Source of the DNA: a virus
Taxonomy: Duplodnaviria; Heunggongvirae; Uroviricota; Caudoviricetes
Strand: one strand, 5' to 3'
DNA length: 38,923 nt
Virus record (IMG/VR): IMGVR_UViG_2541047706_000009
The notes below the pieces were generated by a model that saw nothing but the letters and a program-made list of their open reading frames with translations, searched no databases and was not told the DNA's origin. Position 1 is the stretch's first letter, and each line of letters begins with the position of its first letter. Positions 3,178 through 33,226 of the stretch are shown here, piece after piece. A program made the position numbers and the translations under genes.

Positions 3178-5340
3178 TTAAGCGCTGAAACCGCCGACTC
3201 TAACTTTTAGCGTAGAGAGATCAACATTAACAGTTATGTTTAATACACCACTCCCCGCTGAAATAGAGAATAAGCGCCGTCCGCCTGACGTTCCGCCCCC
3301 CGCCGGTGGAGTGGTATCGAGTTCACCTGTGATCGATATTGAAATGGTACCCTCACGGTTAGCAACGAGTAGCTCTAAACATTCAGCCCAGGTGTTTTGT
3401 GCAGAAGACCAAGCATCGATAAGGATTCTCTGCGTCGTTCTGTTTGGTATTGCGATGGATTTGACTTCACCTGTATTTACCAGACCTTGAAAACGAGTTC
3501 CGTAATCTATCCAGCTAATGCTATAACCTGCATTTGCTGCAGGGTCTTGAGAGGTATACCAGGTCTTGGTTCTCACGCCAGTATGACCGATTGTCAGTAG
3601 AGGACGAGCAAATTGATCTCGATGAATGTATGCATTATCTCTGATCCCGTTGCTCTGCAGATCAATATCTGCAGCACGTGGATTAGGGAAAGTCGCTTTT
3701 CCACCAACATCAAAAACATCATAATGATTTGCAACTGCAGGAATCCATCCGTTCCTGTCCAGATTTCTAAAGAAATCCTCGAAAGCCAGCCAGTATGATT
3801 GCTGATGACCTAAAAGGTTAGGGTGAACAGTCTGTATTTCAGGGGTCCGGTCAAATAATGCCGTTTCACCATATTTAGCAACAGCATCAAACCAGTATTT
3901 TTCCACATCGATAAGCACGCAACCCATTTCTACAGCGATTTTCCTGATCGCATCGTTTCCTCGAAGGAAGCGGACACCTGCTTGAATATTTACCCCATTC
4001 CACTCAAACGTGACATTTGAGTTTGCGGCAGATGGTATAATGTTATTATCAGAGACTGGGGCCGGAGAAGATGAAGGCCATATTTGAGAAATTCCAGCCG
4101 GCATGCTCCAGCTATATTCAGAAATATTCGGATGAGGTGTGGTTGTTAGCACAACATCCCCGCCGGCCTCCCTGACTAAATTAATAGCATTTCGAAGGCG
4201 CTGTTTAAATCCGTTTTCATTGAATGTTTGCCCGGCATTATATTGTGCGGTAGGAAAATCATTCATTCCATATATAAACAAAGCAATATCAGGATATATT
4301 CCTTCAGCAACAACTTCAGGCCATTGGTTAACAATAAAATTATTTATCGTTGAACCATTAACAGATTTGTTTGTGAAGTTAATGGGATAAATACGCTGCT
4401 TATTTAGCGTATCGTTCATATACTCAAAAAATTTAGCAACTGGTGCCTGTGTTGCTGGATCAGGAAGCGTAGCACCAACCCCAACAGAAGAACCAAACCC
4501 ATAGAGTCGAAATAAGTTCTGATAGCCAGAAACCCCATGCCGATAAGCTGTTAATTTATTGACGAAATTTGGGAAAAGGGCCTGTGATGATCCAGACGCA
4601 GCACGAATAGAAGCCTCTACCGTTCTTCCTGTTTCCGTAGCAACTAAGCCAGCACCGTCTTTTGATGCTAGCTTGATTGCCAAATCTGCCGTTTCAGTTT
4701 GCCCTGCAATCGGAACAGGATCCCCCTGGTCATTGAATCCAATCAGCATATTTGCTCTGGCTCGTACAGATGCCATGATTCCTACCTGACTTTCCGGAAC
4801 TCGCAAAGTTCGCTGGAAAAGACCATCTGCATGATGAGTGCTGTCATTGTCTCCCGAGTCCACATAAGATTTTGTTGCTGCATCCTGTGCCTGTGACGGG
4901 TCACGCAGATTACGAATGCGGTTGTTGAGTGCGTCGTAATAGTTCGCGATGAACGACGGCTTACGCAGCGCCAGGCGGAGAAAGCTGAAGCACTGCTGGA
5001 TAAGCATGGTCAGCTTGTCGAACGCATCCTCATGTACCTCTGCGAAAAATTTCCCCTGGTTACGCAGATCAGTCTCCTGGGTAACAGGCAAGTCACGTGA
5101 GATAGAGATTTGCCATCCGTTGGCCAGAGGTGACATCAACACAATGCTCCCACCTGAATAGCTTCCCGCCCCGGTAACGGAGTAATCGGTATCCAGAGTA
5201 AGTACCGTAATATTTTCGTTAAGGTCAGCAACCTGTACTGTCAGATCTGACTTCTTGAAAATACGAAACTTGTACGGGAAAGATGTGGTAACGCCGTTAC
5301 CAGTGTATTCGTTGTGGTCAACTTCGGTTGAGACCGTCAT
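3178..5340 (-). CDS. Tailspike/tail fibre with conserved N-terminal particle-binding domain and SGNH-hydrolase-like block
   Basis: 720 aa. N-terminus TVSTEVDHNEYTGNGVTTSFPYKFRIFKKSDLTVQV resembles the virion-attachment domain of podovirus tail fibres/spikes. Central region has GxND (IYGMNDF) and HPN motifs of SGNH/GDSL esterases. GGAG RBS. Confidence 0.7.
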   Translation of the reverse strand: MTVSTEVDHNEYTGNGVTTSFPYKFRIFKKSDLTVQVADLNENITVLTLDTDYSVTGAGSYSGGSIVLMSPLANGWQISISRDLPVTQETDLRNQGKFFAEVHEDAFDKLTMLIQQCFSFLRLALRKPSFIANYYDALNNRIRNLRDPSQAQDAATKSYVDSGDNDSTHHADGLFQRTLRVPESQVGIMASVRARANMLIGFNDQGDPVPIAGQTETADLAIKLASKDGAGLVATETGRTVEASIRAASGSSQALFPNFVNKLTAYRHGVSGYQNLFRLYGFGSSVGVGATLPDPATQAPVAKFFEYMNDTLNKQRIYPINFTNKSVNGSTINNFIVNQWPEVVAEGIYPDIALFIYGMNDFPTAQYNAGQTFNENGFKQRLRNAINLVREAGGDVVLTTTPHPNISEYSWSMPAGISQIWPSSSPAPVSDNNIIPSAANSNVTFEWNGVNIQAGVRFLRGNDAIRKIAVEMGCVLIDVEKYWFDAVAKYGETALFDRTPEIQTVHPNLLGHQQSYWLAFEDFFRNLDRNGWIPAVANHYDVFDVGGKATFPNPRAADIDLQSNGIRDNAYIHRDQFARPLLTIGHTGVRTKTWYTSQDPAANAGYSISWIDYGTRFQGLVNTGEVKSIAIPNRTTQRILIDAWSSAQNTWAECLELLVANREGTISISITGELDTTPPAGGGTSGGRRLFSISAGSGVLNITVNVDLSTLKVRVGGFSA

Positions 5341-5443
5341 GTTAAATCTCCAGATAGTCGCAGCACCCGTTGCGCCGCATATCTGGTTATTCTATTACCT
5401 GAAAAACCATATATGTATAGAAAGACTATAAATACCAATAGAT

Positions 5444-5460
5444 ATTACCTTTATGGTAAT
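5444..5460. promoter_or_regulatory. 17-bp palindromic operator-like site ATTACC-tttat-GGTAAT
   Basis: Perfect inverted repeat with 5-bp spacer in the divergent tailspike / candidate-antirepressor intergenic region; same motif as the sites flanking the repressor gene. Confidence 0.55.
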
Positions 5461-5496
5461 TTGCAAAACGTGCTGGATAGCAAACAAATTATTTGA

Positions 5497-5516
5497 TACT
5501 GTATAAATATACAGTT
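5497..5516. promoter_or_regulatory. LexA (SOS) box
   Basis: TACTGTATAAATATACAGTT matches the consensus TACTGTATATATATACAGTA at 18/20 with perfect CTGT-N8-ACAG; sits 20 nt upstream of the ATG at 5536. Confidence 0.7.
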
Positions 5517-5535
5517 ATTGCATGGAGAAGATAAG

Positions 5536-5793
5536 ATGCAGCGGTATCACTATCCACTGGAAGACGGATTTACCGAAAGGATTCACACGCCGGGAGGCGT
5601 CAGGTCACTGGTGGAGGGATCGCACTTGATGAAATTACTCCGGGATCTCGATAAGGATGGATTTAATGTCGATGGCCCACTTGCCGAACTGACTGCACTG
5701 ATTAACTACGTCACCAGCTCACAGATGTCTATGCAGGATCTGCAAACACATCTCGACTATTGTGCCGAACAATTACGAAAACAAACCACATAA
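5536..5793 (+). CDS. Small SOS-regulated protein, candidate antirepressor
   Basis: 85 aa (MQRYHYPLEDGF..). GGAGA RBS 7 nt upstream; promoter region carries a LexA box and an operator-like palindrome. Function inferred from regulatory context only. Confidence 0.45.
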   Translation: MQRYHYPLEDGFTERIHTPGGVRSLVEGSHLMKLLRDLDKDGFNVDGPLAELTALINYVTSSQMSMQDLQTHLDYCAEQLRKQTT

Positions 5794-5798
5794 AGAAA

Positions 5799-5816
5799 AG
5801 GCCGCGAAAGCGGCCT
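5799..5816 (-). terminator. Hairpin terminator at the end of the late operon
   Basis: aggccgc-GAAA-gcggcct stem-loop, followed on the minus strand by a T-rich tract (cttttcttta). Confidence 0.5.
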
Positions 5817-5828
5817 GTGACATGTCAC
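5817..5828. repeat. Perfect 12-bp palindrome GTGACATGTCAC (copy 1)
   Basis: Identical 12-mer recurs at 26015-26026; this copy overlaps the stop of the 5825-6121 gene and abuts the terminator hairpin. Confidence 0.6.
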
Positions 5829-6121
5829 GTTCCTTTTCTGAATGATAGCCATTCGAAAAATGATGACATTCCACCGCAGACAATAGCAAAGATTATCCCA
5901 CCAAAGAAGAGAAGGCCAGCCTGCCACCACTCCCACCGCCATACATCCACAGCGCCAACCATACCAACAATCGCTCCAACAAATGGAATATAGCTCACGA
6001 TGAAAGCAATGGGGGCTGCAATTATCCAGTGCAATCCCCACCATGATTCAAGCCCAGCCATAATTGCTGCCAACTGAAAAAGACCAACGACGATATAAAC
6101 AATGAATCCTATAGCTTGCAT
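5825..6121 (-). CDS. Small integral membrane protein (3 TM)
   Basis: 98 aa, hydrophobic throughout with Trp-rich loops; AGGTGA RBS; last gene of the late transcription unit. Confidence 0.55.
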   Translation of the reverse strand: MQAIGFIVYIVVGLFQLAAIMAGLESWWGLHWIIAAPIAFIVSYIPFVGAIVGMVGAVDVWRWEWWQAGLLFFGGIIFAIVCGGMSSFFEWLSFRKGT

Positions 6122-6133
6122 GTAGTCACCTAT

Positions 6134-6307
6134 TTACCCAGTAAAAATCAGAGGCCTCCCCTCAATAAGGCTTGCAACAAGAACTAATCCCTGCACAACA
6201 AAGATGAACCAGCAAATAGCTTGAGTCTGAGGGTTAAGAAAATATTTGTAGCGGTCAATAAATAACAGCCCACCAGAAATTATCACACTCAAAATAATTA
6301 AAAACAC
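6134..6307 (-). CDS. Possible small membrane protein (57 aa, GTG start)
   Basis: Hydrophobic ORF below the ORF-track size cutoff, found by manual translation; AGGA RBS 6 nt before GTG, between the 824-aa gene and the 98-aa membrane protein gene. Confidence 0.3.
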   Translation of the reverse strand: MFLIILSVIISGGLLFIDRYKYFLNPQTQAICWFIFVVQGLVLVASLIEGRPLIFTG

Positions 6308-6316
6308 AACACATCC

Positions 6317-8791
6317 TTATTGCGGAGTGACATCCTGAGGTCGCCACCAGTATGTCTGGTTAAACTCTTTCTTCGAACGTTGCTCCATTTTACGCAAATA
6401 GCCTGGTGAAAAATACTCCTGCATCTGGTTAAAGATCATGTGATCAAGAGCTGCCTTCAAGTACCAGAGATTCGCACCTGGCATCAGCCCTTTCCCAAGT
6501 TTCACCAGATCACCACCAGTCTGCTCGTTCTTCCCTTCCACAGCATTTAATGGTATGCCCTGAGCTATCTTCACTACGTCATCAACCAGGCCAGCTACCG
6601 GGCCAAGCATCGACGCCAGCGCGCCGCTTCCGTACCTAGTGTGATCTGACAATAAAAAGTCACCGTAAAGGCCAAGACCACCACCTTTCAGTAGAGCACC
6701 AAGCCAAAATTTAGCAGCATCTTCTCCTGTCATCTCGCGAGGATTACGACCAGACGCAAGGTCGTTAAGTTGCTGCGACAAAGCGCCAAGAATGGTCGTA
6801 CTGGCAATAAACGTCGCAATATATGCCGCACGCCCACCAGCAGACGGCATACCCATAGCGCGTGACCAGTGACGCATAACCACCGAGATAGGGAACGATT
6901 TAAACAGGAAAACACTTCTCGTTAATTCACCTTTCCATGTTCCACGCTGAATACCAGAACCGGTTATCAGTTGCTCACGTGCTCCCGGTGTAATAACAGC
7001 CATATCAACTTCTTCAGTTACGGCACCGAGCAGTTTACGCATTGCCTCAAATTTCACGCGTTCAGGCTCACCAAGATGTTTAACTGCTGAATCAGGGATA
7101 CGCATAATGCTTTCCGGTGTCAGCATCGTATTATTACCGTTCCCCCAGTCCTCCTGTTGCGCCAGCTTCCATACGCTCCAGTCTGTGTCAGTAATCCCTT
7201 TGCTTTTCAGGATACGAAAATCAGAGTCATCGAGGCTACGAAGGTCTGGTGTCCGTGACACTACTTCTCCCAGGCTTCCCATCATGGTTACGCCATAGGC
7301 GCGCTTGTGCGCATCTGACCATGCTGTAAGCCCACTGGCACGCATTACCGCCGTTGCTGCCCAACGAGACACTGACGGCCCCATATTATCCATCGCCCAG
7401 CGGTTAACGCTGCCAAGTAGAGATTCCATTGCCAGACCAGCGCGGCGCGCCCGCGCAAGTTCTGTACGGTTCGTTGGGTCCATAGCTTCAAGCTGGTTGC
7501 GGAATAACTGGTTCATTGGAAGGTTGGTCACCTTCGCAGACAGATACATGGTTCCAAGATCAGAGAACGATGATAGCAACGCGGATCCGAGTCTGCTGGC
7601 AACCAGCCAGTTGCGGATATTGTCAGACCATCGCGCGATGTGCGGATTCGCTACAGGCTGTGTCTTTCCGGAAATAAAGTTGTACAGATTCTCTGTGTTG
7701 TTCGCCAGCCGCTCGACTTTACCGGTTTTACTCGGGTTAGCTGTTGCCGTTTCTGCCTTCACCTGATCAAGAAGAGAGCGGAAAACATGATCGGGGTTTG
7801 GGCCATATGTTTCCACCAGTGCAATATCTTTACTGATACCTTCCAGGTGACCGACCATGATTTCCCATAGAGAGCGATCGCCATAAAGTTGCTGATATTG
7901 CAGATATGAATCTGCATCTTTGAAATGTATCTGTCGTGATGCATTACCACGGTTAGCACGTGCGCCGGAAATTCGCATGCCGGTATCAGTAAGCTTATTC
8001 AGCCCACCAGTGGCGATTGTGTTATAAGCTTCTCCAAGAAATGCAGACAACTCGGCATCGTTCATCAGTTGTCCATCGGCTCGGATATAATATTTGCGAT
8101 CCAGCTTACCTATAACATCGCTAACCCACTTATCCTTTGATACCGCCCCAACCTTTTCCATAGAATGATGTTGAGGGATCCCCCAGTTTTCGAGATAGCC
8201 AATGTCCCCACCAGCATCATTAAACCGGCGGCGCAGTAGCTCTGTCACTTCTCTCCACGCCTTAGCACCTTTTCTTGCTTTAGCATTGCCAGTATTTTGC
8301 CCCCGCATTTCATATACCAGATCACGTACGCCCGCTTCATCTTCAAACAGACCAAAAAAGCGAGGATCAACTGCTTCGAATGCCTCCTGCAATTGACTCA
8401 ATGCATAATCACGGGTGGCTTTTGTTCTGGATTCAACAGAGAGGAAATTCGATTTACCGTCTGCATTAAAAGCAATAGTACGGTTAAGAGCGCCAAGTTT
8501 CCCATCAGCCCCTTGATAGCTATTGATAAATTTATCCAATCTCTGACGTGCGGCTATAGTGAGGGTCACACGACGTTTCTTTAATGCCGCTTCTCGCTGT
8601 AATTCTTCAGATGCCAATTGTGCTGCACGATATAGCCGCTCTGATTCGGAAAGTTGTCTCCACGACATCGGGTCATCACGAGCAATGGAGCGCATATTTC
8701 GATAAATGCGGTCTTCAATGTTCTGTATTTCTCGCGCCGTTAACGTGCGCTGCGCCGCCTGCTGGACCGCTTGTATACATTCCTGTCTCAT
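6317..8791 (-). CDS. Large internal virion / DNA-ejection protein
   Basis: 824-aa ORF in the block of large ORFs between the tubular proteins and the tailspike, the position of podovirus ejection proteins; no specific motif recognised. Confidence 0.55.
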   Translation of the reverse strand: MRQECIQAVQQAAQRTLTAREIQNIEDRIYRNMRSIARDDPMSWRQLSESERLYRAAQLASEELQREAALKKRRVTLTIAARQRLDKFINSYQGADGKLGALNRTIAFNADGKSNFLSVESRTKATRDYALSQLQEAFEAVDPRFFGLFEDEAGVRDLVYEMRGQNTGNAKARKGAKAWREVTELLRRRFNDAGGDIGYLENWGIPQHHSMEKVGAVSKDKWVSDVIGKLDRKYYIRADGQLMNDAELSAFLGEAYNTIATGGLNKLTDTGMRISGARANRGNASRQIHFKDADSYLQYQQLYGDRSLWEIMVGHLEGISKDIALVETYGPNPDHVFRSLLDQVKAETATANPSKTGKVERLANNTENLYNFISGKTQPVANPHIARWSDNIRNWLVASRLGSALLSSFSDLGTMYLSAKVTNLPMNQLFRNQLEAMDPTNRTELARARRAGLAMESLLGSVNRWAMDNMGPSVSRWAATAVMRASGLTAWSDAHKRAYGVTMMGSLGEVVSRTPDLRSLDDSDFRILKSKGITDTDWSVWKLAQQEDWGNGNNTMLTPESIMRIPDSAVKHLGEPERVKFEAMRKLLGAVTEEVDMAVITPGAREQLITGSGIQRGTWKGELTRSVFLFKSFPISVVMRHWSRAMGMPSAGGRAAYIATFIASTTILGALSQQLNDLASGRNPREMTGEDAAKFWLGALLKGGGLGLYGDFLLSDHTRYGSGALASMLGPVAGLVDDVVKIAQGIPLNAVEGKNEQTGGDLVKLGKGLMPGANLWYLKAALDHMIFNQMQEYFSPGYLRKMEQRSKKEFNQTYWWRPQDVTPQ

Positions 8792-22363: not shown

Positions 22364-22401
22364 TTGACATTTAACGCACGAATTATTACCTTTCAGGTAA
22401 C
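22364..22401 (+). promoter_or_regulatory. Promoter-like TTGACA with operator-like palindrome ATTACC-tttca-GGTAAC
   Basis: TTGACA at 22364-22369; palindrome at 22385-22401 overlaps the -10 position. Faces the noncoding region and tRNA. Confidence 0.4.
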
Positions 22402-30018: not shown

Positions 30019-30035
30019 TTTACCTCTGAGGTAAT
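30019..30035. promoter_or_regulatory. Operator-like palindrome TTTACC-tctga-GGTAAT
   Basis: Lies 3 nt upstream of the DUF1064 start codon and includes its RBS. Confidence 0.5.
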
Positions 30036-30080: not shown

Positions 30081-30097
30081 ATTACCTAACAGGTAAT
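30081..30097. promoter_or_regulatory. Operator-like palindrome ATTACC-taaca-GGTAAT
   Basis: Perfect site between the P-like gene stop and the DUF1064 gene. Confidence 0.5.
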
Positions 30098-32387: not shown

Positions 32388-32452
32388 TTCACCCATAAGG
32401 TAACAAAAATCAAGGATAGTTACCTGTGGGGTGCATTTACCTGTTGGGTAAT
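32388..32452. promoter_or_regulatory. OR-like region with three operator-like sites and divergent promoters
   Basis: TTCACC-cataa-GGTAAC (32388-32404), GTTACC-tgtgg-GGTGCA (32419-32435, weaker) and TTTACC-tgttg-GGTAAT (32436-32452). On the minus strand, a TTGATT -35 and GAATAT -10 flank the first site. Confidence 0.6.
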
Positions 32453-32506: not shown

Positions 32507-33091
32507 ATGAAAAGTATCCAGGACGTCCGCAGGCAAAATCTCAACGACTTGATCGACCGTGAATGCAATGGTGTTCAGACGCGGATGGCAGAAAAACTTG
32601 GAACTCAGGCAAATCTGGTAAACCGCTGGGCTCTTGGCAAGAAGGTTATCGGCGACCAGGTTGCACGAAAAATTGAAGCTGCCGCCAATAAACCCCGTAA
32701 CTGGCTTGATATTGATCGTTCGCTTTCTCAGGAGGGTTTTCAGCCTGTCGGCCCGAGCGATATAGGTCAGCTGGCGGCTCACAACCTGGAACGCTGGATG
32801 AGCGAAAGCCGCGACCTTTCAACACAGGGAAAACTTCACCGCGCATCCGGCGTCGCCCAGGTGACAATCAGCCGCCTGTTAAACAATGAGGTCAGCGTTT
32901 CCATTTCCACCCTGGAGAATGTTGCATCCGCATTCGGGCGTCACGGCTATGAATTACTGATTCACCCGCACGACCCTGCGACCATCAACTATGATCGCTC
33001 GCGCTACGCATTGTTACCCGAAACCGAGAAAGCAAAGATCGAAAGTTACATTGAATTTGTCATCAACCAGAACGAAAAAAACAAACAATAA
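32507..33091 (+). CDS. Putative prophage repressor, tandem HTH, no S24 peptidase domain
   Basis: 194 aa with two helix-turn-helix-like segments (..VQTRMAEKLGTQANLVNRWALGKK.. and ..ASGVAQVTISRLLNNEVSVSISTLENVASAFG..); no Ala-Gly/Ser-Lys autocleavage signature. Flanked by operator clusters and followed by a terminator. Confidence 0.55.
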   Translation: MKSIQDVRRQNLNDLIDRECNGVQTRMAEKLGTQANLVNRWALGKKVIGDQVARKIEAAANKPRNWLDIDRSLSQEGFQPVGPSDIGQLAAHNLERWMSESRDLSTQGKLHRASGVAQVTISRLLNNEVSVSISTLENVASAFGRHGYELLIHPHDPATINYDRSRYALLPETEKAKIESYIEFVINQNEKNKQ

Positions 33092-33147: not shown

Positions 33148-33226
33148 ATTACCTAACGGGTAATTTTTTTAACTCATATCTATTGACATCAAACCATATA
33201 CGCATAATTATTACCTCAACGGTAAC
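33148..33226 (+). promoter_or_regulatory. OL/pL-like region with two operator-like sites and TTGACA
   Basis: ATTACC-taacg-GGTAAT (33148-33164), TTGACA at 33183-33188, ATTACC-tcaac-GGTAAC (33210-33226). Confidence 0.55.

Follow-up and report, generated by a model that had tools for sequence, protein, structure and literature searches.

The closest described system to the locus considered here is the Ant/Rep/LexA switch of Salmonella phage SPC32H, reportedly established by Kim & Ryu 2013 (J Virol 87:11775) and Kim et al. 2016 (PNAS 113:E2480), with the structures PDB 5D4Z and 5D50. Two articles cite Kim & Ryu 2013 for an antirepressor induction that depends on SOS and LexA (PMC7380047; PMC9437464). 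Citing papers describe SPC32H Ant as tetrameric, engaging two Rep dimers and taking the Rep tetramer apart (PMC9638917). Rep is described as using its C-terminal domain both to tetramerise and to bind Ant (PMC9986798), and the tetramer is said to be broken via this C-terminal domain and not by occlusion of the DNA-binding surface (PMC9638917; 2025 bioRxiv preprint).

Other antirepressors differ in their control or in their targets. The Gifsy antirepressors GfoA/GfhA are LexA-controlled and trans-acting (Lemire et al. 2011, PMC3121763), whereas ant of phage P22 is described as being under Mnt/Arc and not LexA control (PMC7380047). In E. coli phage vB_EcoP_ZX5, treatment of lysogens with mitomycin C yields 10^9 PFU/mL; the same 2022 study examined a Bro-N 'anti-repressor' (ORF4), whose overexpression shifted ZX5 towards lysis, without mention of ant (PMC9782041).

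We analysed a stretch of 38,923 nt (IMG/VR record IMGVR_UViG_2541047706_000009), referred to in its entirety as the window. We classify it as an epsilon15/phiV10-type (Uetakevirus) E. coli prophage, that is, a podophage. phiV10-type phages of E. coli O157:H7 serve as reporter phages. The nucleotide identity of the ant region is 95–98% to the E. coli phages phiV10, ZX5, PAS61 and TL-2011b and ~76% to the Salmonella phages epsilon15, SPN1S and SPC32H. A preliminary description had proposed a small SOS-controlled antirepressor gene in this window. Judged by its sequence, the module belongs to the SPC32H-type Ant/Rep/LexA systems, with all defining features that can be read from sequence present.

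Results

Ant is an orthologue of the SPC32H antirepressor

The gene ant (5536–5793, plus strand) starts with an ATG at 5536 and encodes 85 aa plus stop; the program-made list of open reading frames begins it instead at a TTG at 5518. Searched against the Protein Data Bank, Ant matched one entry, 5D50 chain E ('Anti-repressor protein', E=3.1e-47, residues 2–85), which belongs to the solved structure of an antirepressor in complex with its repressor. Ant is 88% identical to the gene product annotated ant, 'anti-repressor protein', in SPC32H (KC911856). Within PHROGs it falls into phrog_450, a family of unknown function (E=2e-47); a weaker match is to phrog_1760, an antirepressor family, in its C-terminal part. 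We found 132 homologues across Enterobacteriaceae. In Pfam, Ant matched no family above cut-off (DUF724 at E=0.004 is below threshold) and contained no Bro-N/ANT domain, and no NCBIfam model matched. The match to 5D50 chain E bears out the antirepressor proposed in the preliminary description.

The gene lies in the late region, at a large distance from the immunity region. It is transcribed away from the divergent 720-aa tailspike gene (3178–5340, minus strand) and towards the convergent late structural operon, whose end it faces. This placement, part of which had already been noted for the tailspike side, is shared with SPC32H, epsilon15 and phiV10, which have the same gene order around ant. 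Direct orthologues with box and palindrome are present in phiV10 (phiV10p24), vB_EcoP_ZX5 and epsilon15 (gp19); in the phiV10 and epsilon15 records the ant homologue is a 'hypothetical protein' and the LexA box is unannotated.

Sister phages carry Bro-N 'anti-repressor' genes just downstream of ant (L086:2309–2998, L003:2307–2891 and L088:2317–3021). phiV10 and Tyrion have such an extra gene, annotated 'anti-immunity/anti-repressor', and ORF4 of ZX5 is its equivalent, whereas the window has none: a Bro-N homologue was sought throughout and is absent from 5794–6316, and at the place of the sisters' Bro-N gene the window has two small minus-strand ORFs for membrane proteins (5825–6121 and 6134–6307). 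Ant is homologous to the last ~80 residues of a Bro-N antirepressor, that of Klebsiella phage ST11-OXA245phi3.2 (38% identity, E=3e-16), and for this reason Ant looks like a stand-alone effector domain of larger antirepressors. Like P22 Ant and the Bro-N/KilA-type proteins, it is an antirepressor encoded near a podophage tailspike gene, but those proteins span 190–300 aa with an N-terminal Bro-N domain, whereas here the 85-aa domain stands by itself.

A single LexA box in register with ant

The sequence TACTGTATAAATATACAGTT at 5497–5516 matches the LexA consensus TACTGTATATATATACAGTA at 18 of 20 positions and is the sole site at ≤3 mismatches from this consensus in the 38.9 kb searched. The bare CTGT-N8-ACAG core occurs three times in the window versus 0.46 expected; the other two cores (18373 and 22914) have GC-rich spacers and flanks that do not match the consensus. 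The box ends 19 nt, not 20 nt as given earlier, before the ant ATG, and the ribosome-binding site that had been noted for the 85-aa ORF is present as GGAG at 5524–5527, plus strand, 8 nt before the ATG as read from the sequence.

Conservation of the box was assessed by comparing the ant upstream regions of 86 loci from 80 IMG/VR contigs and 6 GenBank phages. The scan of viral contigs gave just near-identical relatives (98–100%), and it was the GenBank phages that supplied the diversity. Both half-sites of CTGT-N8-ACAG are intact and at the same position in 81 of the 86 loci, with 18–20 nt between box end and ATG (19–20 nt in all but one of the 81). The 8-nt spacer, by contrast, drifts among loci (ATAAATAT, ATATTTAT, ATGTTTAT, GTATTTAT, TTATTAAT, ATAAGCAT and ATAAACAT), so that half-sites are kept and spacers vary in phages of four host genera. 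Half-sites that stay fixed around a drifting spacer are what selection for LexA binding is expected to leave.

A natural variant bears on the same site. SPC32H and SPC32N, a clear-plaque-type variant of SPC32H, show just two base differences over the 3.5-kb stretch compared, and one of them changes ACAG (SPC32H) to AAAG (SPC32N) in the right half-site of the ant LexA box. The homologous base in the window, C5512, is intact. The AAAG change agrees with Kim & Ryu 2013, who reportedly found that mutation of the LexA box makes Ant constitutive and the phage lytic.

These observations allow us to weigh the possibility that the match is a chance AT-rich palindrome to which LexA does not bind. None of 100 dinucleotide-preserving shuffles of the window contained any LexA-type site at ≤3 mismatches. 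Neither the retention of the half-sites across four host genera around a variable spacer nor the half-site point mutation among only two SPC32H/SPC32N differences in 3.5 kb is in line with chance, which we consider a highly improbable origin of the match. The near-consensus LexA box of the preliminary description is therefore borne out.

Five loci are without an intact box: two Klebsiella phages, a truncated contig, a contig with adapter sequence and the prophage L066. In the Klebsiella phages (L086:1690–1712 and L087), the ant box is ATATGTATATATATACAGTA; its left half has A in place of the first base of CTGT and so becomes ATGT, while spacer and right half match the consensus perfectly. In these two phages, ant may be under weaker LexA control. 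In L066 (IMGVR_UViG_2563366870_000004), an ISL3-family transposase gene (218–1480; Pfam DDE_Tnp_ISL3, E=1e-58) lies inside the LexA box. Because this insertion replaces both the left half-site and the inferred -10 element of ant, it may represent a naturally occurring loss of SOS inducibility. The adapter-bearing IMG/VR contig (L058:1–40) opens with a Nextera adapter (…AGATGTGTATAAGAGACAG) joined directly to the central part of the LexA box, an artefact of untrimmed adapter sequence.

The box overlaps a candidate ant promoter

Seven diverged phages share two invariant blocks upstream of ant, CTGGA.A (5473–5479) and T.TG.TA.TGT (5492–5502), and the base following TG varies between A, T and C among them, as would be seen with a TGn extended -10 element. 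From these we propose a candidate promoter at 5474–5502, plus strand, with a -35 element TGGATA (5474–5479), a 17-nt spacer and an extended -10 element TGaTACTGT (5494–5502). Since a scan with the sigma-70 consensus detected a promoter neither for ant nor for the tailspike gene and the candidate has 7 of 12 hexamer matches, the assignment is drawn from conservation. With this promoter, the LexA box would cover the -10 element and the predicted transcription start. Further downstream, the block TTGCATGGAGA.GA..AGATG is kept in the five non-Klebsiella sequences, and the two Klebsiella phages diverge there.

Two other arrangements were examined. An alternative -10 element TATAAA (5502–5507), paired with a -35 element AGCAAA, is ranked lower than the TGn element, because this hexamer falls within the box spacer, which varies, and ends on a non-conserved base. 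A leftward promoter starting from TTGCAA (5461–5466), with the operator-like palindrome upstream of the box as spacer, was rejected for want of an acceptable -10 element.

The position of the promoter is relevant to the question which gene the box serves. The 195-bp intergenic region is common to ant and the tailspike gene, and the scan found a promoter for neither, so that the box could mainly control the tailspike gene, or else the divergent region as a whole, with regulation of ant being incidental. The box is, however, 19 nt from the ant ATG and 157 nt from the tailspike ATG, its distance to ant is near constant over the loci (18–20 nt), and the conserved TGn/-10-like element that it overlaps faces ant. 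We give control of the tailspike side very little credence and regard ant as the gene served by the box.

At the far end of the gene, the terminator scan found a GC-rich hairpin (5799–5816, minus strand) that separates ant from the end of the late operon, with its T-run on the minus strand; the terminator is possibly bidirectional. The epsilon15 record annotates the homologous stem-loop as a rho-independent terminator. Directly after the hairpin follows a perfect 12-bp palindrome, GTGACATGTCAC (5817–5828), and then a T-rich run; this palindrome may contribute to ant termination. An Rfam scan of 5000–6400 returned Trp_leader as its sole match, below threshold.

Rep is a repressor of the non-cleavable type

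The presumed target of Ant is the 194-aa repressor Rep (32507–33091, plus strand), assigned by its match to 5D50 chain A and its Pfam HTH domains. Rep matches 5D50 chain A ('Repressor') over its full length (E=4.9e-41) and 5D4Z, the crystallised C-terminal fragment, with E=4e-20. It is 99.5% identical to the phiV10 and ZX5 repressors and 41% identical to SPC32H Rep. Pfam places HTH_3 at residues 106–147 above cut-off and a weaker HTH at 21–61, and found no Peptidase_S24 in Rep. LexA and lambda CI, used as tblastn queries against the window, gave no S24-like match (best E=0.19). The earlier statement that the putative repressor has no S24 autocleavage domain therefore holds.

Comparing five phages, we find that the invariant columns of Rep cluster in the NLVNRW recognition helix of its N-terminal domain and in a C-terminal segment, I160–N189, which includes I160, Y162, D163, Y167, L170, P171, E174, K175, K177 and I178. 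Against SPC32H Rep, identity is correspondingly uneven: 51% in the recognition-helix region, 48% in the last 40 residues and 29–33% between them (33% in the middle HTH).

Ant and Rep have diverged to very different degrees. Compared with the Salmonella phages, Ant is 85–88% and Rep 41–42% identical; for the Klebsiella phages the values are 62–64% and 44%. This discordance suggests that modules were exchanged or that Rep evolves much faster, and it raises the possibility of cross-induction between divergent prophages. The phage records with a Rep homologue (36) and those with the ant region (35) are essentially the same.

Operator-type palindromes at ant and at the early promoters

Upstream of the LexA box lies the palindrome ATTACCTTTATGGTAAT (5444–5460), a perfect member of the family ATTACC-N5-GGTAAT. 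The window contains 13 copies of this motif at ≤2 mismatches versus 0.95 expected, almost all intergenic and distributed over nearly all intergenic regions of the prophage, with further 17-bp sites at 22385, 23001, 25903, 25921, 30019, 30081, 32051, 32436, 33148 and 33210. The preliminary description correctly pointed to an operator-like palindrome at ant; its distance to the box is 36 nt and not 38 nt. This spacing of 36 bp is found wherever the palindrome was matched (80 of 86 loci), with conserved half-sites and a variable centre. In the epsilon15 GenBank record, homologous sites, including one upstream of gp19, the ant homologue, are annotated as protein_bind 'repressor; lysogeny'. The conserved operator half-sites fit the invariance of the NLVNRW helix in the five Reps.

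Further sites lie in the immunity and early regions. One operator-type palindrome (32436–32452, one mismatch to ATTACC-N5-GGTAAT) is placed between rep and the divergent cro-like gene. Downstream of rep, two sites 62 bp apart (33148–33164 and 33210–33226) bracket a promoter TTGACA-N17-AATTAT; the homologous pair in epsilon15 (32554 and 32616) is also 62 bp apart and annotated as repressor sites. A second pair with the same 62-bp distance (30019–30035 and 30081–30097) brackets a sigma-70-like promoter. Such pairs would fit a tetrameric repressor that contacts two operators approximately six helical turns apart.

The arrangement at ant resembles one half of such a pair. The ant palindrome is positioned 13 nt upstream of the candidate -35 element, compared with 18 nt for the distal operator at the early promoters, and the LexA box occupies the position of the promoter-proximal operator.

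The tailspike side of the intergenic region

The tailspike has an epsilon15-type N-terminal adaptor, and its residues 298–512 form a GDSL/SGNH esterase domain (Pfam Lipase_GDSL_2, E=2e-10) in place of a beta-helix glycanase. It is probably a receptor-binding protein of the O-antigen deacetylase type. In the intergenic region, a lone half-site (5390–5399) lies within TTCTATTACC, 50 bp left of the palindrome, and is kept in 7 of 7 phages. Read on the minus strand, TTCTATTACC becomes GGTAATAGAAT, which contains a -10-like TAGAAT directed towards the tailspike gene, and the adjoining block CCATATATG is also conserved. This may be the regulatory region of the tailspike gene.

Discussion

The locus is very probably the SOS input of the lysis–lysogeny switch of this prophage, orthologous to the Ant/Rep/LexA system of SPC32H. 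In the lysogen, host LexA bound to the box at 5497–5516, over the -10 element and start of ant, would silence ant, and Rep, unable to cleave itself, would hold the lytic promoters via the ATTACC-N5-GGTAAT operators. Upon DNA damage, RecA-stimulated cleavage of LexA would free the promoter and Ant would be made. Ant would then bind the C-terminal tetramerisation and antirepressor-binding domain of Rep, converting the Rep tetramer to dimers that bind DNA poorly, and the lytic promoters would fire. Because Ant is 88% identical to SPC32H Ant, awakening of the prophage by the SOS response through the published mechanism appears almost certain.

We infer retention of the Ant–Rep interface, because Rep is just 41% identical to SPC32H Rep. 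The mechanism should transfer, since the invariant segments of Rep are the recognition helix and the C-terminus and since ZX5, whose Rep is 99.5% identical to the one studied here, is inducible by mitomycin C. The E. coli orthologues would accordingly be expected to behave like SPC32H Ant and Rep.

The same low identity of Rep opens a different reading, namely that Ant is controlled by the SOS response but inactive on its own, diverged Rep, and acts mainly in trans on the repressors of other prophages or has another role, with the prophage being induced by a different route. The discordant divergence of the two proteins (85–88% versus 41% to the Salmonella copies) is compatible with it, as are the action in trans of the Gifsy antirepressors (PMC3121763) and the second, Bro-N antirepressor of sister phages, which upon overexpression shifted ZX5 towards lysis. 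On the other hand, the phages that carry Ant are essentially those that carry Rep, and the invariant columns of Rep cluster in the NLVNRW helix and in the C-terminal segment reported to bind Ant. In addition, no alternative SOS route is visible in the window, because it contains neither a Bro-N homologue nor an S24 domain. We therefore judge an inactive Ant to be improbable and favour Ant acting on the Rep encoded in the same prophage.

The palindrome beside the LexA box invites a more speculative extension. The ant promoter might be a two-key lock operated by LexA and Rep together, and the conserved Ant might induce divergent Uetakevirus prophages in trans, since Ant is 85–88% conserved whereas Rep has diverged to 41%; we hold this combined proposal only tentatively and consider it rather doubtful. 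If Rep also damps ant, Ant output would become self-reinforcing once LexA falls, which would lead to a sharp and irreversible switch.

Compared with SPC32H, the system shares (i) Ant at 88% identity, the position of its gene, flanked by the tailspike gene on one side and the end of the late operon on the other, and the distance from LexA box to ATG, and (ii) a two-domain HTH Rep without S24 and the operator palindrome 36 bp upstream of the box. It differs in the host, which is E. coli here and Salmonella for SPC32H, in Rep at just 41% identity, in the box spacer (ATAAATAT here and ATGTTTAT in SPC32H, with two and three mismatches to the consensus, respectively) and in the cargo beside ant, which here consists of the two small minus-strand ORFs for membrane proteins.

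The preliminary description had likened the locus to Tum of coliphage 186 and to the Gifsy phages. The logic is indeed analogous, as the Gifsy GfoA/GfhA and 186 Tum systems combine a non-cleavable repressor with a small LexA-controlled antirepressor gene outside the immunity region. For Gifsy, this likeness is one of functional architecture as described (PMC3121763), so that the locus works like these systems without being a member of them. The comparison does not extend to homology: Pfam and NCBIfam model searches detected no relation of Ant to Tum, including its DinI-like domain, or to the Gifsy antirepressors, and the family is that of the SPC32H-type Ant of epsilon15-like podophages. Gifsy phages are siphophages and 186 is a myophage, whereas the Ant system studied here belongs to a podophage.

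The proposal of an SOS-controlled antirepressor is supported computationally by the homology of Ant and Rep and by a box in register with the gene. The reading is right but not new, as the Ant/Rep/LexA system is already known and published, and it opens no new question. Its main value is for annotation, with ant being unnamed in phiV10 and epsilon15 and having no Pfam or NCBIfam model. Recognising ant explains the response to DNA damage of prophages whose repressor cannot cleave itself. The locus is present in 531 of 5,426 complete E. coli genomes, and among the matches listed that cover the gene, 14 of 14 label ant 'hypothetical protein'. The name 'Anti-repressor protein' is used by some UniRef entries only, and RefSeq E. 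coli entries read 'hypothetical protein'. Gene calls for ant are likewise inconsistent, being truncated to 54 aa in Tyrion (L088:1739–1999) and lengthened to 126–127 aa in many metagenome calls (P0001, P0020, P0024 and others).
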